A stretch of DNA of 64,000 bases from positions 192-64,191 of the forward strand of contig CAXUHF010000016.1 of assembly GCA_964250765.1 (NCBI GenBank). The letters run 5' to 3'. This document shows, in pieces, positions 3,267 through 55,884 of this stretch (positions are counted from its first letter, which is position 1; the number at the start of each line of letters is the position of its first letter). Both the position numbers and the translations under genes were made by a program. Below the pieces are notes generated by a model that saw only the letters and a program-made list of their open reading frames with translations, did not search any database and was not told the DNA's origin. The DNA comes from an uncultured Ktedonobacteraceae bacterium (GTDB lineage Bacteria > Chloroflexota > Ktedonobacteria > Ktedonobacterales > Ktedonobacteraceae).

Positions 3267-5672
3267 CTATAACTCGTCATTTGGCATCGTAGGAAAGAGG
3301 TCGAAGTTTAGTCCAAGTTCAGGGTAATATTTCAGCCTCACGACCCAACACCTGTCTGATTTTTCTTCCAATTGAGTTGCTATGCCTTTATGTTTCAGAT
3401 ACATGAGTTTTTTGTGACTAATAGGGACGAACAGTTGAGATGCTTCGATGAACTCTTTCTTCTCAATATGTTCAAGGTAACAGAGAAGAAACTGTTCCGG
3501 CAACACCTCGGCACCATCAAACAAGGCTTCAAATTCTGCTTCTTTCTCCTTACTAGAGTTAAATGGACGTAAGTCTCGTAATAGGTACTCTGCTTTTTTA
3601 AATTGAGCGATAAATGTCTGTGTCCACGGATCGCCTATTTCTGGTGCGTCATAAATCGCGTTGAGCCAGATTTCAATCGAGGCTTCGTCTATCTCATCGC
3701 CGTCGTGTCGTTCCAATTCGTCGAGTGTCCGTCGTACAAGGTTTTGAAGATAGACCCCCTGTCCATCACGTGGCTCACGAAATACATGCACTGGAACAAT
3801 TTTTTTTGTGCGAGAGCGGTTGATACGTCCGAAGCGTTGAATGAGTGCATCGAATGGAGCAGGATCACTGTAAATAGTGTCAAGATCGATGTTGAGACTA
3901 ACTTCGACGACTTGCGTAGCGACGACCGCGAGCGACCCATTGCCCGTTCCATTTGCACAACGTTGCTGGATATCAGATTCATGTCGTAAACGGTCTATCA
4001 TCGTAAAGCGGCTATGTACGAGTTTCACTTGCTCAGGGTGCAGTCGCTTCAGGAGTACGGCCCGCATATCCTGTGCGCGTTGAACTGTGTTGCAACAAAC
4101 AAGTACTGATTTTCCTTGGCGAACATCGTTGACAATAGCGTCAATTCCTTGTTCCATCAAGTCTCCGTCTAAGAGCTTGAGTCGGTGGCGACGAAAACGC
4201 TGAAAAAGTGATTGTTCTGCACGAATGATGTGTGTCGTACCCAGAATATCGGGCATGATTTTGCTCAGGAGCGAGGGAAATGTTGCCGACATAATCAGGA
4301 AACGTGCTCCATAGTAGAGCCGCAAGTGTTTTACTAAGGCCAGAATAAGAGCAAGTCGTTCGGCTTCATATGCGTGAATTTCATCGAAGATGAAGGCGGC
4401 CTGTGTATAGTCAGCTAGCATGCCCTCGAAACCTTTTATTTGGAAAGGAACTTTGAGCATCTGGTATGGGCTGAAGACCTTAATTGGATAGGCATGCAAT
4501 TTGTTCAACTGTATCGCCAATCGTGAACCATCTGCCGCCGAAAGTGGGTCTCCATCCGTGCTGAGCAATTGTTGATACAGTGCTTGCAATGCACGTCCGT
4601 GTTGTAGTCCTACTTTGTCTTTACCGAAGTGGGACTCCAGCCGTTTGTGCATCGCGTTCATACTTGCTTGATAGGGGAGGGTATAAAAAACCCTTGGAAC
4701 TGGCGTTGAGCCATCACCCATGACCCAGTAGAGAGCACCCTCGGTTTTGCCACTGCCGGTGGGAGCAATGAGCATAGTTGAGATCGCTTGTTGAGCCGCG
4801 CACTGTTCTTGATGCATATAGGTCTCGACCTCTTCGGCTCTCTGCTGTTCTTTTAGCTTCCGTTCAAGCTCTTGTTTCACTTCATCGGCAAAGTCTTCCC
4901 ATGAGCGTTGTATGCCTTGTGGAAGTTGTGGTAGATGTGCTGATGCGGAATGATCTGCTGTTGTTGTGAGGCCACGCAACATGACGAGCGTTGAGATGAG
5001 TGTCATGTTGCGTTCTCTCTCCAGCTGCTCAATGAAATCTATATAGATTTCTAGCCATGCATTGATACTTTGCGCTCCCTCTGCACACACATTGTGTACG
5101 GCTTGTTCTTCCTGAACCACTGTAATTGGCTGAACACCAAACGCATCTAAACCAAGTGCTGCAATCCAGGAGGTGGAACACGCGTCAAGCCACTGCCAGA
5201 GACCACGTACTGTTCCTTCGTCTAGTTCCGATACCATGCCCTGTACGAGTTCTGGTGATTTGTACTTATCATAGGTCTTGATGATTTCTTCCGCGTCTCT
5301 ATGATGTGACGCAATAGCAGCGACTATCCATTGACGTTCTGTTTCAGAGAACGAGGGTGCAATCCAGTCAAGAAATGCGAGGGAAAGCACCTCATGACGG
5401 CGTTGCCAGCGCACGCCTTTCTCCTTTACCATGCTTTGAAATCCATGTGCCGCTTTTCCAAAGTCATGCAGAAAGCACGCCCAGAAGAGGCAATGCCAGA
5501 GACGAGGTGCATCGAGCAGTGCTGGAAGCTGTGGGCGAAGACGAACAAGATCAGCGAAGCGTTCGAGCACAAATTGTGTGTGTGTAGCAAGGCTCTCTCC
5601 TGTTTGTCCTTCCTCTGCACTGCTCTTTGCCCAGGTTGTCTCTAACCAATCAGGCCAGGGGGAAAGATTCAT
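3267..5672 (-). CDS. cas3: Cas3 HD-nuclease/helicase fusion
   Basis: 801 aa. N-terminal HD domain (FLHDFGKAAHGFQ, SHHRD). Helicase motif I APTGSGKTE and motif II DEIHAYE. Confidence 0.9.
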   Translation of the reverse strand: MNLSPWPDWLETTWAKSSAEEGQTGESLATHTQFVLERFADLVRLRPQLPALLDAPRLWHCLFWACFLHDFGKAAHGFQSMVKEKGVRWQRRHEVLSLAFLDWIAPSFSETERQWIVAAIASHHRDAEEIIKTYDKYKSPELVQGMVSELDEGTVRGLWQWLDACSTSWIAALGLDAFGVQPITVVQEEQAVHNVCAEGAQSINAWLEIYIDFIEQLERERNMTLISTLVMLRGLTTTADHSASAHLPQLPQGIQRSWEDFADEVKQELERKLKEQQRAEEVETYMHQEQCAAQQAISTMLIAPTGSGKTEGALYWVMGDGSTPVPRVFYTLPYQASMNAMHKRLESHFGKDKVGLQHGRALQALYQQLLSTDGDPLSAADGSRLAIQLNKLHAYPIKVFSPYQMLKVPFQIKGFEGMLADYTQAAFIFDEIHAYEAERLALILALVKHLRLYYGARFLIMSATFPSLLSKIMPDILGTTHIIRAEQSLFQRFRRHRLKLLDGDLMEQGIDAIVNDVRQGKSVLVCCNTVQRAQDMRAVLLKRLHPEQVKLVHSRFTMIDRLRHESDIQQRCANGTGNGSLAVVATQVVEVSLNIDLDTIYSDPAPFDALIQRFGRINRSRTKKIVPVHVFREPRDGQGVYLQNLVRRTLDELERHDGDEIDEASIEIWLNAIYDAPEIGDPWTQTFIAQFKKAEYLLRDLRPFNSSKEKEAEFEALFDGAEVLPEQFLLCYLEHIEKKEFIEASQLFVPISHKKLMYLKHKGIATQLEEKSDRCWVVRLKYYPELGLNFDLFPTMPNDEL

Positions 5673-23411: not shown

Positions 23412-23693
23412 TTATTCCTCCTGCTTGACTGATGGGGGTGTTCCTGCCTGAACTGAAAGGGCATCTTGCACCAACGTTGTCACATCCCCAACTGTCAGAC
23501 AGCGTTTGACCTGCTGATCGTCGAGTGTAATGTGAAAGTGCTTCTCAAGTTGAAGAGCAAGCTCGACTCGCTCAAGCGAGTCGATGCTAAGGGACTCCAG
23601 AGGTGTTTCGACAGTGACGGTTGCAGGTTCAACATCACACTGCTCAGCGATCATCTGTTGTACGTCGAGAAAAGGAGTGTTTTGTGTTGTCAT
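23412..23693 (-). CDS. Acyl carrier protein (type II PKS ACP)
   Basis: Start ATG 23693 (MTTQN) overlaps the CLF stop (ATGA). Phosphopantetheine attachment motif LSIDSLERVEL is present. Confidence 0.85.
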   Translation of the reverse strand: MTTQNTPFLDVQQMIAEQCDVEPATVTVETPLESLSIDSLERVELALQLEKHFHITLDDQQVKRCLTVGDVTTLVQDALSVQAGTPPSVKQEE

Positions 23694-25009
23694 GGAAAGA
23701 TTTTCTCCTGTTTTTCTTTGAACTCTGAGGACCATCTCCGTAATATCAGACATGCGTTCGCTCCACCAATACCACGGGCGTTCACTGCAATGACATCAAG
23801 TCGAGAAACAGGGCGAGGCTGCTTAACGACAAAATCTAGCTCGCATTCAGGAGCGATGCTGTCGAGGTGAAGTGTTGCAGGGACCATATGATGCTGCAAT
23901 GCAAGCAGACCAATGACCACATCGACGGGTGTCGCTGCTCCAAAGAGATTCCCGAAGGCCGACTTTGGAGCACTGACTGGGACAGAATCCGCGTGCTTTC
24001 CCAGCGCAAGACGGATCGCTCGCGTTTCAGCAATATCCTCTTCAGGGACTGCTGAACCTGCTGCTAGGACGCAATCAATCTGTTCAGAGGTGACATGTGC
24101 TTTTTGCATGGCACGCTGTATCGTGGCTGCATAGCGTGCTCCGCTTGGTTCAGGTCGGATGGGATCATATCCATCATTGGTTGTGGCCCATCCTGCAATT
24201 TCTGCGTAGATGTGTGCTCCGCGACGGACCGCCTCCTCCTCCCGTTCAAGGAAAAGGAATGCTGCTCCCTCACCCGCAACGAGTCCATCGTGGCCCTGAT
24301 CAAACGGTCTATAGGCAGATGTCGGACGCGTTGCTGTTTGCATGGACATGAGGCCAGAGGTTTCATAGCATAAAGCCGCATACGGAGAAAAAGGAGCCTC
24401 AGCACCGCCCGCAAACATACTGTCAGCGTAGCCTGCTTGGAGACAAGAGGCAGCGTGTTTGAGTGCGTATGCTCCTCCAATGCGGTCCCCCAAGAAGGTC
24501 CGCCCTATTCCTTTCAGACCCAACTGGATAGAAATGTTTCCTTGCACAGCGGCGGGGAACCACGCCGTTGCCATATACGGGCTGACGTCACGCGGCCCTT
24601 TTTGCCAGAGATTGGCAAGTTCGCGTTCTGCAAACTCCCAGCCGCCCAGATTGTTGCCAACGGTTATCCCAATACGGTCGCGTCCTTCTGTCTGCCATGT
24701 GTCATCTTGGCTCAGGGAAGATGACACGGGTTTCGGAAGGAACTGAGCATCTGCAATGGCGTGTTGGGCAGCGATGATGCCAAACATGGAGAAGCGATCT
24801 ATTCTCCGCACGAGACGTGTGGGAAGAAACTCTTCAGGACGGAAGTCAGTCCATTGTCCTCCCGACTGACAATGGACATGCGAGACGTCAAACGAGGTCA
24901 ACGCCCGAAGTGCAGACTCACTAGAGGAAAGTTTGTCCCATAAGAGTGTGGGACCGATACCGTAAGGTGAGACGACGCCTACTCCTGTGATCACAATACG
25001 TGCCGTCAT
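23690..25009 (-). CDS. Ketosynthase beta / chain-length factor (CLF)
   Basis: 439 aa KS-fold protein translationally coupled to KS-alpha. It lacks the active-site Cys (LGDRIGG context) and both catalytic His (AAGSAVP, FGNLFGAA). Confidence 0.85.
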   Translation of the reverse strand: MTARIVITGVGVVSPYGIGPTLLWDKLSSSESALRALTSFDVSHVHCQSGGQWTDFRPEEFLPTRLVRRIDRFSMFGIIAAQHAIADAQFLPKPVSSSLSQDDTWQTEGRDRIGITVGNNLGGWEFAERELANLWQKGPRDVSPYMATAWFPAAVQGNISIQLGLKGIGRTFLGDRIGGAYALKHAASCLQAGYADSMFAGGAEAPFSPYAALCYETSGLMSMQTATRPTSAYRPFDQGHDGLVAGEGAAFLFLEREEEAVRRGAHIYAEIAGWATTNDGYDPIRPEPSGARYAATIQRAMQKAHVTSEQIDCVLAAGSAVPEEDIAETRAIRLALGKHADSVPVSAPKSAFGNLFGAATPVDVVIGLLALQHHMVPATLHLDSIAPECELDFVVKQPRPVSRLDVIAVNARGIGGANACLILRRWSSEFKEKQEKIFP

Positions 25010-26286
25010 CGTTCCTCTCCTTGCTGATACGTTCCCATAACCAGTGCCGCATGCAAACCTGAGAAGCCAGATGCTGTTGTGAGCAACCAGTGCATCTCGT
25101 GTGAGCGTGATGTGTTTGGAACATAGTCCAAGTCACATTGTGGATCAGGATCACTGTAGTTGACGGTAGGATGAATTTGTTGTGCCTGTAGTGAGAGCGC
25201 ACATGTCACAACTTCTATGGCACTTGCAGCCGCAAGTGAGTGTCCTATCATGGACTTCGTAGAATTGATGGGAATGGTATATGCCCGCTCACCAAGTGCG
25301 GCTTTGAGTGCCTGTGTCTCACGAACATCGTTTTGCGGCGTTGAAGTGCCATGAGCATTGACAAAATCTACTGCATCTGACGAAAGATCAGCGTTTTTCA
25401 ATGCAGTGACGACCGCTCGTGACAAATCTCGACCATCTGGCGACATGTCTGTCATATGAGTTGCATGTTCTGTAATGGCCCACCCTGCAATCTCCGCATA
25501 GATGGGGACTCCTCGCCGAAGAGCATGTTCTAATTCCTCAAGCACAAGGATGCCACTCCCTTCTGAAAGGACGAATCCATCTCGGCTGGCAGAAAATGGA
25601 CGAGATGCCGTAGTCGGTTCTTCGTTGTGGTGTGAAAGACAATGAATAATATCGAATGCCGCGATGGTAATAGGGGTAATGGGAGCCTCAGAAGCTCCGG
25701 CGACGATGACATCGTGCTCTCCACTGAAGATACTTTCATAGGCATATGCGATAGCGTCTACGCCCGCAACACAGCCGGTAGAGAGGGTAAGACACTCCCC
25801 TCCAAATCCATAGCGCGAGGCAAGAGAGAGTGCCGCTGAATTTCCCATAGCGGCAGCGTAAAGATGCGGAGAAACCTCTGAGGAGTGGATGGAGTGACTC
25901 CCCTTCCCGGTGACGGCGACAAACTCCTCATCGAGTGTCTGTGTCCCACAGATGGCAGTTGCAAGAACGACACCAACTTCAGAGGGATCAATGTCTTCCA
26001 GTCGAGCGTCTTGGATCGCTTGTCGGGATGCGACTGTCGCGAACTGAAGAAAGCGGTCCATGCCCAACTCTTCGGGTGGTACTCCTTGCGAAACTGCATC
26101 GAAGTTTTTCACTTCGCAGACGACCTGAGCACCAAACTCATGCCCCCCAAAGAGCGAACTACACGTTGTTTCGTCTAAATGGATGGCTCCTGAAACTCCT
26201 GTGAGTAAGCTCTCCCAAAATGTCTCTTTCCCGATGCCGACTGGAGAAACGACCCCTAGTCCTGTAATGACGACACGACGCTTCAT
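25006..26286 (-). CDS. Ketosynthase alpha (type II PKS KS)
   Basis: 426 aa. Active-site Cys in LSTGCVAGVDA. Catalytic His residues in AHGTSTPQND and MIGHSLAA. GAAGGGAG SD upstream. Confidence 0.9.
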   Translation of the reverse strand: MKRRVVITGLGVVSPVGIGKETFWESLLTGVSGAIHLDETTCSSLFGGHEFGAQVVCEVKNFDAVSQGVPPEELGMDRFLQFATVASRQAIQDARLEDIDPSEVGVVLATAICGTQTLDEEFVAVTGKGSHSIHSSEVSPHLYAAAMGNSAALSLASRYGFGGECLTLSTGCVAGVDAIAYAYESIFSGEHDVIVAGASEAPITPITIAAFDIIHCLSHHNEEPTTASRPFSASRDGFVLSEGSGILVLEELEHALRRGVPIYAEIAGWAITEHATHMTDMSPDGRDLSRAVVTALKNADLSSDAVDFVNAHGTSTPQNDVRETQALKAALGERAYTIPINSTKSMIGHSLAAASAIEVVTCALSLQAQQIHPTVNYSDPDPQCDLDYVPNTSRSHEMHWLLTTASGFSGLHAALVMGTYQQGEER

Positions 26287-40100: not shown

Positions 40101-42163
40101 ATGGATAACGAGCAAAGAGGTCACTCGCGGACCAACGAAGACTTCGTGGTGAAGGTGTTTCTCTGTGGACCATTGCGTCTCCAGCGTCTTTGCGTAGACA
40201 ACAACCCAGAATCATGTATCTTCCTACCAAGACATTCCTCCAACAGAGTGGGGAGAGCGACCAGGACCAACCTTCAGCTTGCTCAAACTACTCCTCTGCT
40301 GTGAGAACCGCCACGCCTCCAAGACGTTTCTTGCTAGTACGCTCTGACCCGATTATGGCGAGAGAGAAGCACGACACAGTCTCAGTCAAGCAACACGAGT
40401 GCTCCGTTCCCTCCTCCGTATAGGTGAAGAGGACTCGAAGAGCGAGGGCAAAATGAAGAGTTTGCTCTACGAGTCGCCAGGAGGGGAAGGGTTCCAACTC
40501 GCCGATCAAACGTTGCTCTGGGTAGACATTGATGCCTTTGAAGATGCGATGAAGCAGGCCACTTATGCGGAACGTCACAATCAGAAGGAAGAAGTACGCT
40601 TTTGGTGGGAACGAGCATACGCGCTCGGCAGTTCGGGAAGCTTCTTGCCCGATGACCTGTATCGAGAATGGACCAATGCTCGTCGTCTCAGACACGAACT
40701 GCTGGTTCCCAGGTGTGCTCGTCGTCTGGCAGAATGTTATGTCGCTGAAGAACGCTATGGGGAGGCGGAAGCGGTCCTTCGCCCCTATTGGGCGACGCAT
40801 CTCACCGATGAAGATATTCTGATGCTCTTGATGCGGACGCTGCAAGCACAAGGGCTGGAACAAGAAGCCCTTCGCTGTTATGAGCAGAGTGTGCATGGGT
40901 TGGACGAGGAACTAGGGGTCAAGCCGCATACGTCTACTACGAACTTAGCGGACCATATTCGGGGGCAGCAACACGAGCGTGATCGCACTCCCACACTACA
41001 TTTTCCTTCTCTTACACAGCAGAATAAGATGTCTTTTCCCTTTTCACAGGCAGTTACACAGGATATAATGAAAATTGTTCGTGAACTAGAGGGAGCAACT
41101 GAATTGAAATCACAAAGTAGTGTTAACCGTCGTGCCGTGATTGCACATCTTTTAGGGTTGCCACCCGCGCTTTTTGCTTCAGATGGTCATGTGGTTGATA
41201 CTTTGACGGATGCAATGAAGTTTCAAGAAGAAACGCTATCTTCCTTGTATGAAGACATGCTCGTCATGGGATGGGATAGCTTTCGGCGAAGTAAATCCCC
41301 ACAAATTATTACGAGGATTGATGAGCATGTGAAAAAGCTTACCGCACTTGCTCGTTATGATTCAACAGGGGATACAGAGCACTGGCAATCACTCTTATGC
41401 CGTTTCAGCCAACTCTCCACAAGAATTGCACAACATCGTATGAATGAACCCCGCGCATTGAATATGGCAAAACAAGCAATCATGATTGCCATAGACCTTG
41501 ATGATGCTGAAGCTATTGCTTCTACGTTTTATGGGCGTGGAAGAGTACATATGGAATATAGTAATACCTCTACTGATGTCAAACAAAAGCGGAAACATTT
41601 TGATCTTGCAAAAGCAGACATTGATGCTGCATTGGGGCATGTCGAACGAGTACGTATACCACTTGCAGGAAACATTTATTTACTTGCTGCTGAAATTTAT
41701 GCACTGGTAGCTGGGTAATGATATGCTCCTTCGTACCCAATGTGAAAAGTGGCAAGACAAGGTTGCATTCTTTGTTGACAGCGAAAAGATCGAAGATGAT
41801 GGAACGTTTCTAAAGCTCAATCCGACAGCCTTGCATCACGAAAGAGCAAAGACCTTACTTCGGTTTGGTCGGATCGAGGATGCACGTCGTGAACTCAACA
41901 CAGCTTGGAAAACGCTCCAACCAAATCTTTTTACGTGGCACATGAATATGCATCTTACACAAGCGAGTCTATTTCTTGCTGAACACGATATTGAAGAAAG
42001 TGTACAATCAAGTCTCAAAGCATACACCCTAGCAAAGACAATCCATTCACACAAGGGAGAGGTAGAGGTACGGTATCTGCTTGAGCAACTCCAGCAACTT
42101 GATACATCACATTCCTCTGTCCGAAATCTCACAATGACCATAGAGGCGACTCATGAGCAATGA
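40101..42163 (+). pseudogene. Decayed SARP-family (wHTH-BTAD-TPR) regulator, paralog of 45870..47777
   Basis: The N-terminal wHTH region is spread over three frames (40056..40304, 40190..40423, 40399..). The BTAD/TPR body 40399..41718 is intact. A further frame change leads to 41723..42163. About 80% nucleotide similarity to the intact paralog by eye in the BTAD region. Confidence 0.6.
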
Positions 42164-45869: not shown

Positions 45870-47777
45870 ATGGATATCGAAAAGGAAGTAGTTGCCATGA
45901 ACGAAACAGTACAACCGCATTCGCTCACCGATGCTCCTGTTTTCAAAATCTCTCTGTGTGGACCCCTTCACCTCCTCTATAAAGAGCGGATTGATGGTGA
46001 TGCACCTTCCATATACCGCGATATTTCTGCAACCGAGTTGGGCGAACGTCCAGGCACCACCCTCAATTTGCTCAAGTTGCTCCTATGCTGTGAGAACCGT
46101 CATGCGACCAAGACCTTTCTTGCAGATGCTCTGTGGCCTGAGTCGGGTGAGCGAGAAGGACGTCACAGTCTCAGTCAAGCCACGCGCACGCTTCGCCTTC
46201 TGTTACGGGTTAACACCGAGGAACCAAAGGGGAAGAGCAAGAGTCTCTTGTTCGAGTCGCTAGGAGGAGAAGGGTTCCAGCTTGCCGACCAGTCGCTCTT
46301 ATGGGTCGATGTTGATGCCTTTGAAGACGCGATGAAGCAAGCCACCCGCGCGGAACGCCAGAAACAGCAGGAAGAAGCGGTCATGTGGTTGGAACGAGCG
46401 TATGACCTGGGCAAAGCTGGTACCTTCTTGCCTGATGATATTTACAGAGAGTGGACCAATACACGTCGTCTCAGCCACGAGCTCCTTTTTCCCAGATGCA
46501 TTCGTCGGCTAGCAGAATACTACATCGCCGAGGAACGGTATGGCGAGGCCGAAGAGGTCCTTCGTCACTATTGGCTCACGCATTTGACCGATGAAGAGAT
46601 GCTCATGCTCCTCATGCAGACGTTGCAAGTACAAGGACTAGAGAAGGAAGCACTCAAATGCTATGAGCAGAGTGTAAGCGCATTAGATGAGGAACTAGGA
46701 GTCAAGCCTCAGCCGTCTACTACTGCTTTAGCAAATTTTATTCAAGAACAACAAAGAACACACAAACTCATTTCTTTTCCACATGTTTCTACAGTAATGA
46801 AAAAGGAAGAAGTACAGGTAGAAACGAATATACCAGTTAAAGCATTATCTGATAATGCTTATGACCATGATCAATTATTTAATGTTGAAGAGACCACGCC
46901 TGAGACGTTAGAGAGTTTTAGAACTTTGCTAGCTACGTGCCAACACCTTAGTGAAGGGAATAAACTCAAGGTTGCAGAGCGCATACTCTGGTCCTATCTT
47001 CCATATGTTGCGTCTCTCGCAAAACTTTCGTTAAGTGACCAGAGAACATCGGCAAATATTGCTTCACAAGGCTACTTGCTTGCAGCTTCTCTCGCCGGAC
47101 ACCGAAACGATCTTCACGCGAGACAGCAATTAAGCGAACAATCCTTACTGTACGGGAAACTAGCAAGCGACCGTAACTTACAAATTGCGGCGATACGAAA
47201 GCTAGCAATCACCTATGATTATTTGGGACGCCCAGACAAGATACTCCAAATCTATCAGCAAACTTTTCCATACTTAGAAGAAGTTTCTTCACTCTTACGT
47301 GCATGTCTCTATGCAGATATATCGGCTGCCTACGCTCAGTTGAATCAGCAGCAGGAAGCTCTCCGCTTCTTAGGACTAGCGTATGAGCATTTCCCTGAAA
47401 AGTATAATAACGAACCAAGTTTCCTTCATACCATTTGTAGATATTCTACACTCATCATTTGCGATGGACTGCATCACCTTCACTTTGGTCAACCGCATGA
47501 GGCAGCGAAAATCTTTGCTCGTATTGATGGGCTACAGCCAAAGGTAGCAATGCCAGAACGAGTTCGTATTGGTTTACTCAATTGCCAAGTAGAGGTTTTT
47601 ACTGAGTTAAAGAATATGGAACAAGCTACTCACTACCTCGAAGCTGCTAGCAAGGCATCTATCGCTATTGGAAGCGAAAGACGCTTTCAAGAGTCTTTCA
47701 CAGTCTTTCAGCAATTGCAAAAGACATGGAAAGATGAGCCGATGATCCGAAATTTAGAGAGCCTCTTTATTCGCTAG
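45870..47777 (+). CDS. SARP-family transcriptional regulator (OmpR-type wHTH plus BTAD plus C-terminal TPR)
   Basis: 635 aa. ISLCGPLHL...LLKLLLCCENRHATKTFLADALWPE...SLSQATRTLRLLL (wHTH). VDVDAFEDAMKQA...ERYGEAEEVLRHYW...LMQTLQVQGLEKEALKCYEQ (BTAD). TPR-like repeats follow. Confidence 0.8.
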   Translation: MDIEKEVVAMNETVQPHSLTDAPVFKISLCGPLHLLYKERIDGDAPSIYRDISATELGERPGTTLNLLKLLLCCENRHATKTFLADALWPESGEREGRHSLSQATRTLRLLLRVNTEEPKGKSKSLLFESLGGEGFQLADQSLLWVDVDAFEDAMKQATRAERQKQQEEAVMWLERAYDLGKAGTFLPDDIYREWTNTRRLSHELLFPRCIRRLAEYYIAEERYGEAEEVLRHYWLTHLTDEEMLMLLMQTLQVQGLEKEALKCYEQSVSALDEELGVKPQPSTTALANFIQEQQRTHKLISFPHVSTVMKKEEVQVETNIPVKALSDNAYDHDQLFNVEETTPETLESFRTLLATCQHLSEGNKLKVAERILWSYLPYVASLAKLSLSDQRTSANIASQGYLLAASLAGHRNDLHARQQLSEQSLLYGKLASDRNLQIAAIRKLAITYDYLGRPDKILQIYQQTFPYLEEVSSLLRACLYADISAAYAQLNQQQEALRFLGLAYEHFPEKYNNEPSFLHTICRYSTLIICDGLHHLHFGQPHEAAKIFARIDGLQPKVAMPERVRIGLLNCQVEVFTELKNMEQATHYLEAASKASIAIGSERRFQESFTVFQQLQKTWKDEPMIRNLESLFIR

Positions 47778-48513: not shown

Positions 48514-48816
48514 GAAAAATAACTCGTCAAAGATTTGTTCGTGCTATTGATAATTCTACTCACCATTATATGCATATCTTGTTATGTGTGAAGACAGTAC
48601 CAAGCAACTAGTACTGATCAGGTTGGCTCTAAGTAGTTCTAATAGGTGGTGGAGTGACCCTTGCTCATAGGATGCCTGATATCGGTGGACAAGGCTTGAT
48701 ACATCGTTTTGGTGTACGGAAGCCTCGTCTTAGCAGCTTGATAGAGAGGTGTGGACGTGAAAAGATTATTTGGTATGACGAAAATACTGGAAATGAGTAG
48801 TTGTACCCTGTTCGCT

Positions 48817-48910
48817 TCCTACCCTACCCACGTCCTATGGTAAGCATATCTTGACCTACCTGTCCCCTACCCACATCCTACCCGTACCCAAAAGCTATAG
48901 TGTTTCTATC
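48817..48910 (-). repeat. GGGTAGG-heptamer array A plus 20-nt head
   Basis: Five CCTACC copies on the plus strand, starting at 48818, 48823, 48855, 48866 and 48877. Followed by aaagctatagtgtttctatc, the reverse complement of the head of array B. Confidence 0.8.
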
Positions 48911-49096
48911 AGAACGTGCATGACAGCTTGTACAGGGTACAGGTTTCTTGTTGACACAGAAAGATATGTCTTCTAAGGATCAACAAAGTGCCGTCTGTAA
49001 AAATAACTGCCTCCTGTGCAATTACAGGAGGCAAAGATAAAACTGCTTGTTAAATGTGACGTTTTCTTACAAACACCTAGAGAGATAAGAAGTACG

Positions 49097-49345
49097 ATGA
49101 AGGAAGCTGAACTCACTCCTGCCAAACGAAAGCGATTGCTCAAGTCCTTTGGTTCCTGCCCAGCAGGATATACAACGAAAGAGCTTGAACAGGTACTTGA
49201 TGTGCTCTATGGAATGTACAGCCATGTTTATACTCTCTCCGAAATACGCCAAATCATCGTGAGCGATCCCTTTGATCGTTCCGAAAGCCCACGTCAGATC
49301 AAACTCGTTGATCTTACAGATTGGTTAGAGGCTGTTGTGGCTTGA
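49097..49345 (+). CDS. Hypothetical protein
   Basis: The ORF 49016..49345 has a likely ATG at 49097 (MKEAELTPAKRKR...). No family recognised. Confidence 0.35.
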   Translation: MKEAELTPAKRKRLLKSFGSCPAGYTTKELEQVLDVLYGMYSHVYTLSEIRQIIVSDPFDRSESPRQIKLVDLTDWLEAVVA

Positions 49346-49553
49346 CCAAGCGAGGTAGTTCTACAAATAGCATCAAATAAGAGTTTGTTGAGTTCTATCG
49401 AAAGAAGAGCTAATAACAACTTCATCCCGGTATTCACTTTAAGGAACCTCAACATATCCCAAAGCTACCCGAACTTAAAAACCACGGCTCGGATGAGTAT
49501 CGTTTTGCCTTCGAGCAAAACGAAATTCACCGTTTGTAGGAAGAAAGAGAACT

Positions 49554-51497
49554 GTGGAAGCAACTACTCATACACAATCTCATACTGAGAACACAGTATC
49601 AAATCACTCTGTGGATATTCCGCAGAATGTATTGGGGAGTGCAGCCCCACCGCTTTATGATGGATTCCGCGCACTCTTTGCAGAAACACTTACTGTCTCA
49701 CTTGATAAGGAAGGTATACATACGCGGGCCGTTAGTGAACGTATTAGAAATTGTGCTGCTAGAATGCTGTGCTTTATTAACTTTTGTCTTAAAGCGAATA
49801 GTAAGCCGGAGGAAGGGCTAAAATACTCTCGCCCTGAGTTTCAAGACCTTTTTCGCAATGAGTATAGCTTAGACATCATTGAGGTTGCCCAAGTTCTCAT
49901 TATTTCGTTAGGCTTTGTGTCCCCTCCTTGTCAAGATGGCACAACAGAGCGTGCTTTTAGCTGGAAGATCAACGGAATGAGACTAAGAGAAGCTTTCGAT
50001 TCTGTTGCAGCGACACAAGCATACAAGCGAGTAAAAAAACGCAAGCAGCGTAGTAACCGTTCACATGTAACTCTTGTTTCTACCACTGGAAATAATACAT
50101 CGACAGATGCTTTACAAAAGAAAGGTGAAAACACCTCTCAGATAGATGAACTTTCTCATGACCAGAAGTCCCTTCATGGAAAGAGCGATATCGACGTTTC
50201 GACACAAGGACATCAGGTTGAGGAAGCGAAGACATCTTTTTATGCAAGCAGCGATATAACGGCATGTAATACGAAGATTACTCAGGGAGATGTAGATGCT
50301 TCTGTAGATACCCTCCACCCTCCCTCTAAAAAAGAATATGATGGACTGGAAGAGAACATATCGCCATTAGAGGTGAAAGAAGATGCTCAAAAGTATGACG
50401 TGTCATTTCAGCCTATGCAACCAGAAGCAGTTGTCACTGCTTTCTCAGAAGCTCCTAAATCGCCTGAAACAGTCCTTGCATTCTTCGATCAATTGCGAGG
50501 ATACAGTCTAACAGATGGTTCCTTAAAATTAGCTCAAGAGAAAGCCTATGAGCTTTGCTATGGAAATGAAGAGATTCAACGGCCTGGGTATAGCTTTCTG
50601 GCGATTATGCTTACAGCAGTCTATCTTCTCAAACATGATCCAAAGTGGCAGGAAAACTTCGAGAAATATTGCGGAAGGACGGGTATCCCAGAGGTTTGGT
50701 CCGTCAACAAGTGGATTGGGGCAAAATGGCCCCTTGCAAAGCGTCGATGTCTTAACATCGGTGAATATATCGAACTTGATGATGGAACCCTTCTCTCACA
50801 GGCACAGTATCAGGTCCTCATGAAGCGTGAGCGAGAAGAATGGCGGACTGAACAGGAACGTTGGAGAGATAGCACACTACAGAGTCAAGAGTCCAGCGTG
50901 GAACCTGATGAAAGCGATGTGGTAGTGATAACAACTAGTAGTGAGACGGAGATGCTTGTTCCTGCTCTAGCATCGTCAGAGCAGGAACTGGAGGTAGTAG
51001 ATGGGGGTAAGCCAATTGGCTGGACGAGTGCAACTATCGCTGGCTGGCATGCGAAACGGCTTTCATGGTCGCTCCCACCCTATTTTGTAGTAGAGGTGCA
51101 ACCAATAGATGAGCAAGTTCACTTTGGGATCGTAATAAAAAATGCTTGCCTTGAAGATGATACAGAGATCACTCTCCTCTGCAACAAAGAAGTATGTACC
51201 TTCTTGGAAGTGATACGAGAGGAGCGAACTCGTGAAGGACAGGAAAGTGGCTGGATTGAGGTGGCAATTGCTTACTGGTGGACTGATACACTCCTAAAAA
51301 AACTTCCTTCTGACTGTCTAGTGGAGGTGTGCCTGAATGGTGACCGTTATGTTATCGAAATAGACCGCTTGCCTCAGAATAAAGGATGTATTACACTTGC
51401 CAATAATTCACAGGTAGAAGCATTTCTTCTTGCACTAGCTTCTGATAAAACTGAACAGAAAACGAGGAGAGGAGGTTTAGGGCGTCGAAAGAGATAG
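49554..51497 (+). CDS. Large hypothetical protein (ORFan, acidic central region)
   Basis: 647-aa uninterrupted ORF opening with GTG after AGGAAGAAAGAG. No recognisable motif. Confidence 0.55.
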   Translation: MEATTHTQSHTENTVSNHSVDIPQNVLGSAAPPLYDGFRALFAETLTVSLDKEGIHTRAVSERIRNCAARMLCFINFCLKANSKPEEGLKYSRPEFQDLFRNEYSLDIIEVAQVLIISLGFVSPPCQDGTTERAFSWKINGMRLREAFDSVAATQAYKRVKKRKQRSNRSHVTLVSTTGNNTSTDALQKKGENTSQIDELSHDQKSLHGKSDIDVSTQGHQVEEAKTSFYASSDITACNTKITQGDVDASVDTLHPPSKKEYDGLEENISPLEVKEDAQKYDVSFQPMQPEAVVTAFSEAPKSPETVLAFFDQLRGYSLTDGSLKLAQEKAYELCYGNEEIQRPGYSFLAIMLTAVYLLKHDPKWQENFEKYCGRTGIPEVWSVNKWIGAKWPLAKRRCLNIGEYIELDDGTLLSQAQYQVLMKREREEWRTEQERWRDSTLQSQESSVEPDESDVVVITTSSETEMLVPALASSEQELEVVDGGKPIGWTSATIAGWHAKRLSWSLPPYFVVEVQPIDEQVHFGIVIKNACLEDDTEITLLCNKEVCTFLEVIREERTREGQESGWIEVAIAYWWTDTLLKKLPSDCLVEVCLNGDRYVIEIDRLPQNKGCITLANNSQVEAFLLALASDKTEQKTRRGGLGRRKR

Positions 51498-51822
51498 CAA
51501 CTCTCTAAATTCTTATAGCTGTTGGGATATAAAGCAGGAACATTTAAATAACTGTCGTTGAACGGCTCTTTGATGGGTGTCTCACTTGGAGGCTGTGGAA
51601 GAAGAGATAGGTACTTCAGGAGAGAAAGAACTACGAGGCTTATTAATCGATTGCATATCGTAGAGGAGAGTTTGCTATTGCTCGTCTGTAGTTATAGCAT
51701 GTCTGGCTACAACATAGTGGTTCAAATGAAAAATAGATCGAGGCCACTATACATTCTTAAAAGCTGGAATTGTCGGAATCCTTCTGAATTCACATCTTTT
51801 AGCTAAAATTCAATATATGTTG

Positions 51823-51851
51823 TTTACATTGATATATGTCTATGCTACAAT
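51823..51851 (+). promoter_or_regulatory. Sigma-70-like promoter
   Basis: TTTACA (51823-51828), a 17-nt spacer, then TACAAT (51846-51851), read directly from the sequence. Confidence 0.5.
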
Positions 51852-51857
51852 GAATGC

Positions 51858-51964
51858 AGACATTTTTACTTCATACGATTTGTTCCACCTGTCCCCCAAA
51901 CAGATGTTGAGCAATCCGTAACGCAAGTAGGCATCACTTTCTTTATGTGGTGCCTGCTTTTTTT
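51858..51964 (+). ncRNA. Candidate small RNA (~105 nt) bounded by promoter and intrinsic terminator
   Basis: Begins about 7 nt after the -10 element. Ends at the hairpin GGCATCAC/GTGGTGCC (51930-51954) followed by a run of seven T (51958-51964). There is no SD-preceded ORF inside. Confidence 0.4.
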
Positions 51965-52428
51965 GTTTAGCACCTCGACCAAACAGAAGAATACCTGACT
52001 CTTGGACAGAAGTCAAACAGTTTTTCATCAGGGAAAAATAGTGAGTTTAAATAAATGATGATGTGAGAAACACAGGTCGCGATGCGGTTTATATCTAGTA
52101 AGGGCATAGAGGAGTGAGCAGCTTCGCCAATCATGGGACGATGGCTCCGCAAGATTCAGCGTACCTTGACTTCAAAGCCACTCTTTGCTCCCACAAGCAG
52201 GGGTCTGTTTGTGTTTGCTGGTAGGCCAGAGGTATACCCAGAAGGTAGACTTCTGAACTACTAACTACATAGAGAAACGAGTCAAGAACTTGAATAGTGG
52301 CATCTTTCAAGTGAAAGTTAGAATGAAAAAGCCAAAAAAGTTCCTTTTTCGTTCCAAAGGCAATTCTTCTTGTTCGGTTCGTCGGTCCCCAGCTTGCCTC
52401 TATTGTTGAGCATAAGTAGGAGAAATGT

Positions 52429-52629
52429 ATGAGTGCTAACAAAATCCGTCCATCTCATGGACGCAAAGCACAGGTCCAGAGGCAAGGGAAACTGGAGCGC
52501 ATTATCAAGTTAGTCTTTCGTATGCCGCCCTTCGTAAAGCGACTGCTAGAGTATGCTGTGATAATACTGCTTACCAACCACACGGCGATCACTGACTTGA
52601 TCAACCTGATTAAAGCCATTCGCTCATGA
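52429..52629 (+). CDS. Hypothetical small membrane protein
   Basis: 66 aa. AGGAG SD lies 7 nt upstream of the ATG. Basic N-terminus plus one hydrophobic helix. Followed by a strong terminator hairpin. Confidence 0.4.
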   Translation: MSANKIRPSHGRKAQVQRQGKLERIIKLVFRMPPFVKRLLEYAVIILLTNHTAITDLINLIKAIRS

Positions 52630-52698
52630 AAGCAAAAGGATAGGCACACCATCAACGTTGATGATGCGCCTGCCCGCCTTACTCAACACTTTAAAACA

Positions 52699-52735
52699 GA
52701 AGCACACGTTCATTATTGAGTGAAACGTGTGCTTC
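52699..52735. terminator. Bidirectional intrinsic terminator
   Basis: Perfect 12-bp stem GAAGCACACGTT/AACGTGTGCTTC between convergent genes 52429..52629 (+) and 52762..53352 (-). Flanks are T-rich on both strands. Confidence 0.6.
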
Positions 52736-52761
52736 CAATAATAATTGTTTTCCCTGACCGT

Positions 52762-53352
52762 CTACTGCTGAACACCTCCGACATATTGGGGTGTATCAAG
52801 GACAGCACTATAGGTCTGCCCATCGAATGTTGCCTCAGCAGACACACGCCCTGTGCGACTCCACTTCATCGGAGACCAAGCATCACTACCGTGAATAGAG
52901 CCACTTGACTCCTCAGAATTGAAGTACTCAAAATGTGTTCCGTCTATTGTGTCGCCAATTCCGCTATGCTCAATTACTTTGACAGTAATGGTAGCTTGTC
53001 CCTGGAAGGAGGTTGCATGAGCGAAGTATGTCTGACATGTCGGACTCCAATAAAGGTCAACCTCTGCTGTAGGATTGTTATTGGCATCTTTGAGAACCTG
53101 TGGGAAAAACTTCGTTTGACCGTCGATACAAGCACCACTCCCTAATCCTGGTTTTGCGTGTACTGTAACAGGGTACTGACCATCACAGTTCGAGCCATTC
53201 GAGTTTGCCGCACATGCTCGTGTGTCAAATGCGTTTTGCATTGACACGCTAAGAGCAGAAAGTGCCTGTACTGATGTACCTCGAAACAGAAATGCGCTAC
53301 CTAGACAGAAAAGCAAGAATAGCACTGATGCGAGAATAAAGAGTTGTTTCAT
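52762..53352 (-). CDS. Secreted protein, DUF2690-like
   Basis: Likely start at ATG 53352 (MKQLFILASVLFLLFCLGSAF), which is a signal peptide. The Cys pattern and EVDLYWSPTCQTYFAHA resemble the DUF2690 core. Confidence 0.55.
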   Translation of the reverse strand: MKQLFILASVLFLLFCLGSAFLFRGTSVQALSALSVSMQNAFDTRACAANSNGSNCDGQYPVTVHAKPGLGSGACIDGQTKFFPQVLKDANNNPTAEVDLYWSPTCQTYFAHATSFQGQATITVKVIEHSGIGDTIDGTHFEYFNSEESSGSIHGSDAWSPMKWSRTGRVSAEATFDGQTYSAVLDTPQYVGGVQQ

Positions 53353-53536
53353 GTGTTCTTGAAACCTTTCATTAGAGTCATAGACAAGCATAAGGTGTAC
53401 GAATTTTTACAATTCTTTTTCCATCTGTAAGAGGCTTGAAAACAGAACCATCTGTCATCTGTAGTACATGATTATGCGAGTTTAATTGGCCTTTTCATCA
53501 TGGCCTACTAAGCAGGTATGTCCTCTTACGCACTTG

Positions 53537-53662
53537 GATAAAAACACTATAGCTTGCAAGCACTGGTAGAGCGTGGGTAGGTGGGTGGGTAGGCTAATGG
53601 ATAACGTGGGTAGGTAGGGAGGTAGGACATGGGTAGGTTAAGGGGTAACGCGGGTAGGTAGG
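53537..53662 (+). repeat. GGGTAGG-heptamer array B plus 20-nt head
   Basis: Head ggataaaaacactatagctt, then GGGTAGG copies starting at 53575, 53587, 53608, 53631 and 53652, plus extra GGTAGG copies. Confidence 0.8.
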
Positions 53663-53779
53663 AAAGTATATAGGTTTGCTTATTTAATTGAGATGACTGT
53701 ATACACACGATGAAAAGAAAAAATGGCAAGAGCAACTTGAATTGTCGTTACTCTTGCCAAAAAAGTCTAAAGCTTAGAC

Positions 53780-55456
53780 CTATTTTGAATCGATGGTTTC
53801 CGATTTCTGAGCCGAAAAGCGATAGGCACTTGTTTGCTTTTTTGCATCTGTGACATCATTTTCTGTCTCTCGATCTGGCTTCCAATGACCCTCGCTCTGT
53901 GAACTCATCTTTTCCTTGAATGCGGCATATCTTTGATCAATCATGTCAGTTTTACCGAGTTTCCCAAGTTCTACTACGCAACGCCGTATGGCTCGCTCAG
54001 CTGCACTGACACGTGCCCCATCCCGATTCGCTTTATAGCTAAATTTCAGCTTATTGTCCACACGGCTGTTGATGGCGTACATCGCGTAATCGTTGAAGAG
54101 TTGTGCTGCCCTTCCGATATGATGTCTTCTCTGCTCCTCGTTTTGTTCTGCTGATAAATTACCTGCAAAGAAATTTTTTCCTAGAGCACTTTCGTGAAGA
54201 GCGATCAACCACAGTGCATCAAGATAATAGTCTCGGTACAGTGTATACGGCTCACGCACCCACACGCCAAATTCATCAGGGAATGTTTCTATAAGTTCCT
54301 GCAAGAAGTCTCCTGGGTAAGCCTCGATGAGTTGTTCACAAGCTTGTAATACTTCGACAGGAATGGTGCCATCAAGTTTCTCGTCAAGCAAGCCTTCTTT
54401 TCGTGCTTGTCTTATGATAGTATGATACTGTTCTATTGCTTCAAGGTCGGTGACGCGACACGAAGGGTGAAGTCGATAGAAACCAGACTCGGTACTGAAA
54501 AAGTCAACGGCTTTCTCTGAAAGTACCTCTTGTCCAGCATCCCGATTGAGGTCTGCTACAGCTTTTCTCAGATCATCTCGGAGGAATTTCTTTGCCGCGT
54601 CAAATGCTTCACTCAGTTGCTCCGTGTTCATATCCCGCCGCCGTCCACGACCCAGAACATACGTCAGTAGCTTGTCGCGATCAACAAGCTCGCCTTTTCG
54701 CCAGGCGACATACGCGAGTAAAATGAGACGAATAGCATTTTCGCCACGTCGAAGTCTCACCTCTTTTACAATACCATCTGTTCCATGAAGCTGAACACGT
54801 ACTCTCCTAAGAAGCGAGATGCTTACAAGAGGAGTGGATGTTTGAGCCATGACCGGAGTTTGTACGGTTGGAATAGTACGCATTTGCGGTGAAGGTACAA
54901 TTTTTGTTTTCTCACCGATTAATTCGCCGCTCCCTTCTGTCATATCTTCGTTTGAGAGCCACGACAGATCAGGGGTAGGTGGAATTGGGGTAATTGGTAA
55001 GACAAGTGAGTTGTACTGCTTTGCTTGAGAAGAGTCCTCTAGCTGAAACAAAGGTGGAACCGCAATCGGTTTCTGGGTATATGTCTGTTCTTGTATCATA
55101 CTTTCACCTTTGTAGAGTGAGTATGATACATCACTATTCGATGACTCTTTAGACCGAGAGGGCTGTATGTCCCACTCACTCTGATGTGCTCTTTTTAAGA
55201 ACCGAGAGTCTCCCCATTTCCATAGGATAACCCATACCCATCCGCCGAAGATGAGCAGGCAGAGAATGGGAGAAAAAACCTTGACCAATATTGACGCACG
55301 TATGATGGACGAGAACTGGAAAAATTGTGGGAGTAGTCCCCAGTTAGGGAGAGACAGAAGAAACAATGCAAGAATACCTGTTGCGACCCCGACAGCGACA
55401 GCAATGATCAGACGCATTCGGGCATACGGGGATGACGTATACTCATCAGCAAACAT
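53780..55456 (-). CDS. Membrane-anchored SARP-like protein (2-3 TM helices plus wHTH plus BTAD-like domain)
   Basis: Likely start at ATG 55456 (MFADEY) after GGAAGAGGAAG. N-terminal hydrophobic helices. LRRVRVQLHG...AIRLILLAYVAWRKGELVDRDKLLTYV looks like a wHTH. A helical BTAD-like C-terminus follows. Confidence 0.6.
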   Translation of the reverse strand: MFADEYTSSPYARMRLIIAVAVGVATGILALFLLSLPNWGLLPQFFQFSSIIRASILVKVFSPILCLLIFGGWVWVILWKWGDSRFLKRAHQSEWDIQPSRSKESSNSDVSYSLYKGESMIQEQTYTQKPIAVPPLFQLEDSSQAKQYNSLVLPITPIPPTPDLSWLSNEDMTEGSGELIGEKTKIVPSPQMRTIPTVQTPVMAQTSTPLVSISLLRRVRVQLHGTDGIVKEVRLRRGENAIRLILLAYVAWRKGELVDRDKLLTYVLGRGRRRDMNTEQLSEAFDAAKKFLRDDLRKAVADLNRDAGQEVLSEKAVDFFSTESGFYRLHPSCRVTDLEAIEQYHTIIRQARKEGLLDEKLDGTIPVEVLQACEQLIEAYPGDFLQELIETFPDEFGVWVREPYTLYRDYYLDALWLIALHESALGKNFFAGNLSAEQNEEQRRHHIGRAAQLFNDYAMYAINSRVDNKLKFSYKANRDGARVSAAERAIRRCVVELGKLGKTDMIDQRYAAFKEKMSSQSEGHWKPDRETENDVTDAKKQTSAYRFSAQKSETIDSK

Positions 55457-55884
55457 AAAATCTTCCTCTTCCAAGAGATATGACGATAGATGAATGGTAG
55501 TTTGCTCTCGTAGATTTCACCTTGCCAATCTACCAACCACGCTTGGGCAATGTTATTCCCTTGTGTCTGGATGACACAGAGAAGATACCACTGCACCTTT
55601 TGACTCTGCTATTACATGAAAAAGCAGGAAAAAGTCTACAAGATAGAATTATACAACAAAGACAAACAATAAATGAAGATATGCGTAAAAAATGACGATA
55701 CCATAAACGCTGCTGAAGCTGTTCCTTTCCATTCCTCTTTGTTTACATCCTTTGTCGGTGCGTGTGCTCTCACAATGACTTCTTGCCTGCCTCTTACATC
55801 CCATACTACTTCCACTAGGAACAACTCGTAAAAAATGGTTGAAACGTGCTGACATGTTTTACCCACTGTTGTGAGAAAGAAAAA

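Follow-up and report, generated by a model that had tools for sequence, protein, structure and literature searches.

The 64,000-nucleotide window analysed here, a stretch of contig CAXUHF010000016.1 from an uncultured Ktedonobacteraceae bacterium (Chloroflexota), carries three intergenic arrays of the heptamer GGGTAGG, referred to as arrays A, B and C. We propose, with a probability of about 0.6, that these arrays are cis-regulatory operators of three activator-dependent promoters, and we do not regard them as cassette ends. On the C-rich strand the arrays all share one arrangement, in which 11-nt units (CCTACCCACNN), with CCTACCC(AC) conserved and the next 2-4 bases variable, stop 8 bp short of a TAnnnT -10 hexamer, the whole being aimed at the next gene. 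The layout is CCTACCCACAT CCTACCCGTAC ccaaaagc TATAGT at the predicted promoter of array A (P_A), CCTACCCACGC TCTACCAGTGC ttgcaagc TATAGT at that of array B (P_B), and CCTACCCACGC CCATACGGTGC ctcttttt TATGCT at that of array C (P_C).

Phased heptamers in fixed register to a -10-like hexamer

GGGTAGG occurs 16 times in the window against 2.7 expected, a count reached in 0 of 100 shuffles, and the shorter GGTAGG 32 times against 12.9 expected. The three intergenic arrays, all located at 48.8-61.5 kb, account for 14 of the 16 exact GGGTAGG, and a cluster scan of the first 48 kb found no further array. Arrays A and B were already described in a first-pass annotation of this DNA, and direct reading places them at the same coordinates and on the same strands. 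The unit spacings reported there also match, being 11 and 11 bp in array A (unit starts 48855, 48866 and 48877) and 12, 21, 23 and 21 bp in array B (unit starts 53575, 53587, 53608, 53631 and 53652). Within any one array the boxes all lie on the same strand, as direct repeats of a heptamer core in an 11-bp unit. Array B contains an internal duplication of ~44 nt (repeat family D1), and arrays A and B have 45 nt in common at 78% identity over the core (inverted repeat I1). Array C is additional to this pair; its five GGGTAGG (61442-61494, plus strand) are oriented like those of array B and come without the head described below, and it has no partner and lies ~8 kb from array B.

Arrays A and B are each accompanied by an exact copy of a shared head, as annotated, although this head is 19 nt long (GATARAAACACTATAGCTT) and not 20. 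It occurs exactly twice in 64 kb (48892-48910, minus strand, and 53537-53555, plus strand; 0.01 occurrence expected). On the C-rich strand the head corresponds to the predicted core promoter, comprising the -10 hexamer and the start region and pointing away from the G-rich side. The two heads do face inward, because A and B would be two convergent promoters.

The first-pass annotation had correctly placed the units on roughly one face of the helix, and taking the -10 hexamer as the reference point brings out the phasing more sharply. A heptamer lies exactly 23 nt upstream of TAnnnT in all eight CCTACCC arrays available, namely A, B and C of the window, three in the related contig L121, and A' and B' in the related contig L124. 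When the offset was scanned from the last exact heptamer, 23 nt was found in seven of the eight arrays and any other offset in at most three; the exception is array A of the window, in which the last exact heptamer lies one unit nearer, 12 nt from the -10. An arrangement of 11-nt units, 8 bp and TAnnnT was found in 12 of 12 promoters compiled from the window and its relatives, all of which aim at the adjacent gene. Relative to the -10, the boxes start at -19, -30, -41/42, -52/53, -63, -75, -86 and -107, in multiples of ~11 bp that also hold when the further boxes are measured from the -30 box.

At a spacer of 16-18 bp, the best match to TTGACA is 2/6 or less in 11 of the 12 promoters; no hexamer exceeds 2/6 in promoters A, B and C of the window, and the best match of P_A is 1/6. 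As these promoters are devoid of a usable -35, activation would be expected rather than repression of a strong promoter. Binding by a regulator had been among the roles listed in the first-pass annotation, and it is this option that the fixed register to a -10-like hexamer and the aim at a downstream gene support.

The arrays do not behave as dispersed repeats. When tested over the 64 kb as repetitive extragenic palindromic (REP) sequences or miniature inverted-repeat transposable elements (MITEs), only these three were present, all within 13 kb and none palindromic, and all are located 110-190 nt upstream of gene starts, unlike 3'-end REP/MITE copies. A window-wide search for other heptamer repeats in the register of SARP sites showed no enrichment (4 observed versus 3.2 in shuffles), and Rfam covariance models run over the whole window gave no family at gathering score. 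Outside the window, a scan of genome contigs for three GGGTAGG with loose gaps returned, among the matches listed, unrelated GC-rich genomes. A metagenome scan for CCTACC..CCTACCCACNNCCTACC returned 86 stretches, apparently all simple tandem repeats and many from marine or other unrelated samples, none of them Ktedonobacteria-like in appearance. Nothing relevant turned up in the literature on the motif or on Ktedonobacteria promoters or rpoC.

Our proposal for how these promoters could work is as follows. A winged-helix activator of the OmpR/SARP type would bind head to tail, one protomer per unit, along one helix face. The pair of protomers nearest the -10 would occupy the -35 and spacer region and bring in RNA polymerase, substituting for a -35 contact, while further in-phase units (near -41, -52, -63, -75, -86 and -107) would add cooperative binding. 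P_A would thereby fire rightwards into an 82-amino-acid (aa) open reading frame (ORF) and a 647-aa ORFan, P_B leftwards into a gene for a secreted DUF2690-like protein, and P_C leftwards into an operon encoding a paralogue of the RNA polymerase beta' subunit.

Conservation of the proposed promoter layout in related contigs

The comparison set comprised the contigs of ORFan homologues and relatives, designated L121, L122, L124/L214, L125, L126, L127 and L215. L126 is Dictyobacter formicarum and L127 is Tengunoibacter tsumagoiensis (both cultured), while L124 and L214 are one ENA contig (contig_43571) that is 92-95% identical to the window and has orthologous arrays A', B' and C'. The five boxes of array A are unchanged in L124 but for a single substitution, which turns the proximal box at 48877 from CCTACCC into CCTACCA at its final position. 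Array B retains in L124 its boxes at -30, -75, -86 and -107, with CCTACCA as the sequence of the -19 unit; array C is conserved in L214.

More distant contigs retain the layout before other genes. In L121, whose ORFan homologue is 44% identical, this homologue, a ParM-like gene and a gene for an integrase each have a CCTACCC array before them, 23 nt from TATGCT, TAGAGT or TACACT, and another integrase-like gene is faced by a fourth promoter, whose boxes are of the CCTCCCC type. The array in front of the actin-like ParM-type gene (ALP_N) is directly 5' of it, and ORFs of 102 and 86 aa follow. L215, whose ORFan homologue is 58% identical, carries the string ACCCAAAAGCTATAGT, identical to that of array A of the window, with boxes (CTTCCCC-ACGT, TCTCCCT-CCGT and CTTTCCC) that have drifted in sequence and retained their register. 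Register is likewise retained with boxes of the CCTCCCT/CCTGCCT types in L122, L125 and T. tsumagoiensis, L125 having a divergent promoter pair. The promoter of the beta' operon in both D. formicarum and T. tsumagoiensis keeps TTTTCTATGCTG together with degenerate C-rich boxes. T. tsumagoiensis also has two CCTACCC 11 bp apart before a DUF2690 gene and a CCTCTCCCTGC-type promoter elsewhere.

Positions 1300-10000 of L121 hold four such promoters in 9 kb, with helicase, HNH and SIR2-TIR genes as neighbours. Judged from its gene content, this region looks like a mobile element employing this promoter type.

Arrays A and B within the block shared with a related contig

The DNA common to the window and L124/L214 extends from 48766 to 62855 (14.1 kb), at 92-95% identity outside an internal variable stretch, with sharp junctions and unrelated flanks on both sides. 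This block, which could be an island or a recombination unit, carries all three arrays, array A beginning 52 nt inside its left end. No terminal repeats of 8 nt or more were found at the block ends (48766 and 62855). The only large difference inside it concerns 51520-52690, where L124/L214 has for the most part other DNA, with genes for a DDE transposase and a HIT protein and an ORF of 60 aa.

The first-pass annotation had treated arrays A and B as a pair flanking a cassette, and had suggested that they could be the long terminal inverted repeats of a mobile or invertible element, which with its arrays would measure 4.8 kb. In keeping with this suggestion, the two arrays are mutually inverted, with the 45 nt in common mentioned above, and the window and L124 do not have the same content in the interval. 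However, array C is unpaired, and the arrays of L121 stand singly before unrelated genes. In L124/L214, A' and B' have the same orientation as in the window despite the insertion between them; the difference consists of the internal insertion of the DDE transposase and HIT genes, with both arrays kept. As the annotation had noted, the ORFs scanned between 48.8 and 53.7 kb contain no transposase, integrase or invertase domain. We therefore rejected A and B as ends of a mobile or invertible cassette, as the arrays are not located at the ends of a unit that differs between genomes and the block ends are themselves without terminal repeats of 8 nt or more. The cassette reading is largely refuted, and what probability it retains is close to negligible, which removes a false lead: arrays A and B do not mark a new mobile or invertible cassette.

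Two other features of this region were noted. The sole piece of 51520-52690 that is kept in L124 is 51780-51979 (200 nt, 83% identity), which includes a promoter-like site with a TG at 51823-51851 on the plus strand and may be the small-RNA candidate of the first-pass annotation. A second, unrelated inverted pair (CCTTTCATTTCNCAGNTACNCTGGAATTCTCA; 61627-61658, minus strand, and 62898-62929, plus strand) flanks a gene for a 292-aa thymidine-kinase-like protein (61893-62771), its right copy lying 43 nt outside the block.

Genes downstream of the predicted promoters

Table 1. Arrays, predicted promoters and associated genes of the window.
Feature	Coordinates	Strand	Description
Array A	48817-48910	G-rich on -	Intergenic
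Array B	53537-53662	G-rich on +	Intergenic
Operator array A, C-rich reading	48818-48887	+	CCTACCC/CCTACCT box starts 48818, 48823, 48855, 48866, 48877
Proximal 11-nt units of array A	48866-48876; 48877-48887	+	CCTACCCACAT; CCTACCCGTAC
Operator array B, C-rich reading	53560-53662	-	Eight CCTACC(C/T) boxes
Proximal units of array B		-	CCTACCCACGC; TCTACCAGTGC (degenerate)
Operator array C	61427-61495	- (C-rich)	Five exact CCTACCC boxes
Proximal units of array C		-	CCTACCCACGC; CCATACGGTGC
Predicted core promoter P_A	48888-48910	+	Spacer ccaaaagc (8 bp), -10 TATAGT 48896-48901, start region GTGTTTCTATC, rightwards
Predicted core promoter P_B	53537-53559	-	Spacer ttgcaagc (8 bp), -10 TATAGT 53551 down to 53546, start region GTGTTTTTATC, leftwards
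Predicted core promoter P_C	61405-61426	-	Spacer ctcttttt (8 bp), -10 TATGCT 61418 down to 61413, leftwards
Predicted transcription unit of P_A	49098-51497	+	82-aa ORF and 647-aa ORFan
82-aa ORF	49098-49345	+	ATG at 49098; mechanical ORF start GTG 49016
647-aa ORFan	49554-51497	+	
Secreted 209-aa protein gene, predicted target of P_B	52762-53391	-	DUF2690-like via homologues
Predicted operon of P_C	53780-61239	-	Four genes
262-aa protein	60451-61239	-	Weak MarR-type match, possible winged helix
219-aa protein	59631-60290	-	
Short RNA polymerase beta' paralogue	55885-59460	-	1191 aa, full-length
564-aa protein	53780-55474	-	N-terminal membrane helices
SARP-like protein, candidate regulator	45870-47777	+	635 aa; ~1 kb left of array A
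BTAD gene	40399-41718		

Neither gene of the putative P_A unit has a match in Pfam, NCBIfam or PHROG (Table 1). The ORFan has six homologues only among 5.8 billion proteins and no relative in viral contigs. The 82-aa ORF is far better conserved, with 68-82% aa identity to ORFs in L215, T. tsumagoiensis and L121; its counterpart in L121 closes the ParM-like operon, which has an array of its own in front. A small regulator is one possible function. The leader of P_A contains, on the minus strand, a terminator-like hairpin (49007-49034; 11-bp stem followed by a T-run) that is kept in L124 with one compensatory and one wobble change.

The secreted protein downstream of P_B is 93% identical to a 227-aa protein of L124 and 22-30% identical to DUF2690 (weak) proteins of D. 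formicarum and T. tsumagoiensis. Its true start is likely the second Met near 53352, which comes after AGGAG and opens a signal-peptide-like stretch.

The four-gene order of the P_C operon is kept in L122, L124/L214, D. formicarum and T. tsumagoiensis. The rpoC gene of the window codes for the short form of beta' (1191 aa) and is not adjacent to rpoB. Two size classes of beta' exist in Ktedonobacteria, one of ~1160-1190 aa (57-96% identical to that of the window) and one of ~1440-1455 aa (52-53% identical). In four related lineages and five loci, the short beta' is followed by a membrane protein of ~570 aa, while one or both of the 262-aa and 219-aa proteins have homologues encoded ahead of it, and from this synteny the rpoC locus looks like a conserved beta' paralogue operon, on which we found no paper. 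Homologues of the 564-aa protein and of beta' are named Dictyobacter, Tengunoibacter, Ktedonospora and other Ktedonobacteria, and the 564-aa family has 169 representatives among 1.84 billion proteins. An exact-identity look-up of the window proteins gave no recorded entry. The rest of the window contains a Cas3 gene (3267-5672), a ketosynthase pair resembling a type II polyketide synthase (23690-26286) and a BTAD regulator gene (40399-41718), as would fit a stretch of Ktedonobacteria chromosome with much secondary metabolism.

Candidate binding proteins

The 635-aa SARP-like protein combines a weak OmpR-type DNA-binding region, a BTAD domain and TPR repeats. Its matches are to Pfam BTAD (3e-16) and Trans_reg_C (0.008), to the NCBIfam AfsR model (2.5e-5 over aa 66-291) and to PDB entry 8hvr_I (AfsR; E 0.006). 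Candidate binders inside the shared block are the 262-aa, 219-aa, 82-aa and 564-aa proteins, and no response regulator was detected among the window genes scanned.

From its topology the 564-aa protein was suspected, by eye, to be a membrane-anchored SARP. An AlphaFold2 model (pLDDT 87.5 over aa 205-564) displays a strand-strand-strand, three-helix, hairpin unit followed by helical repeats. Profile searches of Pfam, NCBIfam and PDB returned nothing for this protein, hhalign against the SARP-like protein of the window gave a probability of 4%, Foldseek found weak helical-repeat matches only, and distant members of the family have no domains. As the suspicion was backed by no tool, this assignment was rejected.

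Discussion

The arrays, their register to the -10, their orientation toward genes and their conservation can be read directly from the DNA; from these we infer transcription starts at the predicted promoters, protein binding and activation. Several points weigh against operators of activator-dependent promoters. Some upstream boxes are 4 nt off register, and with 5-9 units the arrays exceed the 2-3 usual for SARP sites. In L124, the boxes of array B at -42 and -63 are degraded, a loss of upstream boxes. Substitutions between the window and L124/L214 are rarer in the boxes (8 of 118, 6.8%) than in the spacers (12 of 89, 13.5%), a difference that is a trend only (p = 0.15). Across lineages C-richness is kept more than exact sequence, which would fit recognition of shape or structure. 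The start sites are predictions, and for the binder of the arrays there are candidates only: the link of the 635-aa SARP-like gene to the arrays is weak because this gene lies outside the block that carries them in the relative, and the 564-aa protein could not be sustained as a SARP.

The strongest rival, which we nonetheless consider unlikely, is that a repressor or centromere-binding protein of a mobile element uses the arrays: they would serve its partition protein or master regulator as operators or as sites akin to a centromere, and this protein would repress several element promoters and perhaps ensure segregation. Models for it are ParR on the 11-bp iterons of R1 parC and the omega protein on the heptad arrays of pSM19035. 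In L121 an array lies directly before the ParM-type gene and others before two integrase genes and the ORFan homologue. In R1 parC, the par promoter is surrounded by 11-bp direct repeats in two sets of five, and ParR acts there as a repressor (PMC2241845). Also in line with such a protein, the 14-kb block bearing the three window arrays has different flanks in two genomes, and the highly conserved 82-aa ORF is always near such arrays. However, the promoters are without a usable -35, unlike what repression of a strong promoter would call for, and boxes are found only upstream of the -10, whereas parC has them on both sides. Furthermore, no ParM-like or Rep domain was detected among the window genes scanned, and the promoter of the P_C operon is conserved in the chromosomes of cultured genera. 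It is quite improbable, in our estimation, that a specialised machine reads the phased C-rich heptamers directly, be it a polymerase with the short beta' and its operon partners or a dedicated sigma factor. One version would be a Ktedonobacteria transcription module in which the beta' paralogue and the 262-aa, 219-aa and 564-aa proteins recognise or depend on the arrays, that is, a second RNA polymerase with its own promoter class; we give this version an equally slim chance, its basis being co-location. Arrays cluster at the beta' paralogue locus in the sequence examined of the window, L124/L214, D. formicarum, T. tsumagoiensis and L122, and array C appears to drive the very operon of the paralogue, so that a positive loop would result. 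The partners encoded in this operon are restricted to Ktedonobacteria, with the 169 representatives given above, and belong to no assigned family, and the 262-aa and 219-aa proteins have, by eye, a DNA-binding look. Yet the -10 hexamers are of the ordinary sigma-70 type, L121 has four such promoters and no beta' gene within the 15.7 kb examined, and reading of upstream promoter DNA by beta' is not a known activity.

A role of DNA structure, by which the G-rich template strand folded into a G-quadruplex (G4), or the C-rich strand folded into an i-motif, would modulate promoter opening or insulate neighbouring units, has a comparably low probability. The best 25-nt G4Hunter windows score 1.76, 1.48 and 1.56 for arrays A, B and C, values that express propensity, and C-runs are kept across lineages more than the exact heptamer. 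Within a lineage, however, the full CCTACCCAC string is repeated exactly, including its T and A, although a G4 could form without this; stretches in which four GGG runs are joined by short loops are few, and the exact 8 bp to the -10 and the 11-bp register fit a protein-polymerase geometry. Least credible, together with the cassette, is a small RNA that would start at the head, have the sequence of the G-rich strand and act as a sponge for a protein or a C-rich RNA. Downstream of array B on the plus strand, a hairpin with a T-run (~53720-53766) could end such a transcript after ~200 nt, but this hairpin is the terminator of the convergent 564-aa gene. In addition, the head offers only a poor -10 in the G-rich direction (TATAGC), compared to TATAGT on the C-rich strand, array C has no head on its G-rich side, no Rfam match was obtained, and 12 of 12 related promoters are consistent with the C-rich reading only.

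Ktedonobacteria are a mycelial, spore-forming and metabolite-rich branch of the Chloroflexota, and to our knowledge almost nothing is known about the control of their transcription. If the arrays are indeed operators of activator-dependent promoters, 11-bp C-rich units, 8 bp and TAnnnT would provide a usable promoter/operator signature, along with a small testable regulon and bait DNA for finding the activator. This regulon would include the operon that encodes a second beta' subunit of RNA polymerase, an unstudied feature in its own right, and the replacement of the -35 in the manner of SARP and OmpR proteins would operate beyond actinomycetes.

Among known systems, the inverted repeats of transposons, MITEs and invertible segments resemble arrays A and B in being two inverted copies, here ~4.6 kb apart. 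They differ in that here a third copy is unpaired, no recombinase domain turned up in the ORFs scanned between A and B, the copies consist of phased direct repeats with a -10, and they are not placed at the ends of a unit that varies between genomes. A closer likeness exists with the PHO boxes and other OmpR-PhoB operators. PhoP of Streptomyces binds arrays of 11-nt direct-repeat units with 7 conserved and 4 variable bases. The window arrays appear to share with these the 11-nt unit with a conserved core and variable tail and the variable number of in-phase units, and the head-to-tail binding of winged-helix protomers that we propose would also be alike. The core sequence differs, and the window genes scanned include no response regulator.

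The omega protein of pSM19035 acts on heptad arrays that are contiguous, with a period of 7 bp, and not phased at 11 bp. Like the omega sites and R1 parC, the arrays described here are short direct repeats at promoters (11 bp in parC; PMC2241845); one regulator for several element promoters would be a further likeness, as is the ParM-like gene behind one L121 array. In parC, the repeats occupy both sides of a competent promoter that is repressed, whereas here they are found only upstream of a promoter without a -35.

The closest known counterparts are the SARP promoters of antibiotic-producing actinomycetes. Their direct repeats are spaced by 11 or 22 bp, the 3' one lies 8 bp from the -10, and the -35 is poor; the region from -19 to -40 is taken up by two 11-bp repeats, in each of which the first 8 bp are contacted by the protein (PMC10936776, PMC10972967). 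A SARP dimer with its protomers side by side stands in for the -35 contact, touching sigma region 4, beta, beta' and the C-terminal domain of alpha (PMC10936776, PMC10972967). Compared with the afs box of afsS and the sites of ActII-ORF4, DnrI and PimR, the arrays share heptameric cores in 11-bp repeats on one strand, the 11/22-bp spacing, the end of the 3' repeat 8 bp from an ordinary -10, the position of the repeats over the -35 and spacer region with a poor -35, and the presence of SARP/BTAD genes nearby. The box itself is different (CCTACCC(AC) versus TCGAGXX or CGTTxATCG), the units extend to about -110, the host is a Ktedonobacterium (Chloroflexota) and not an actinomycete, and the targets are an ORFan, a secreted protein and the beta' paralogue operon, none of them biosynthetic. 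SARP binding is established at the actinomycete sites, while the likeness reported here is one of sequence geometry. With 5-9 boxes per array where SARP sites have two or three repeats, the arrays are better described as a variant of the SARP type than as a member, and they most likely represent an operator of a known class, in an altered form, in an unstudied lineage.

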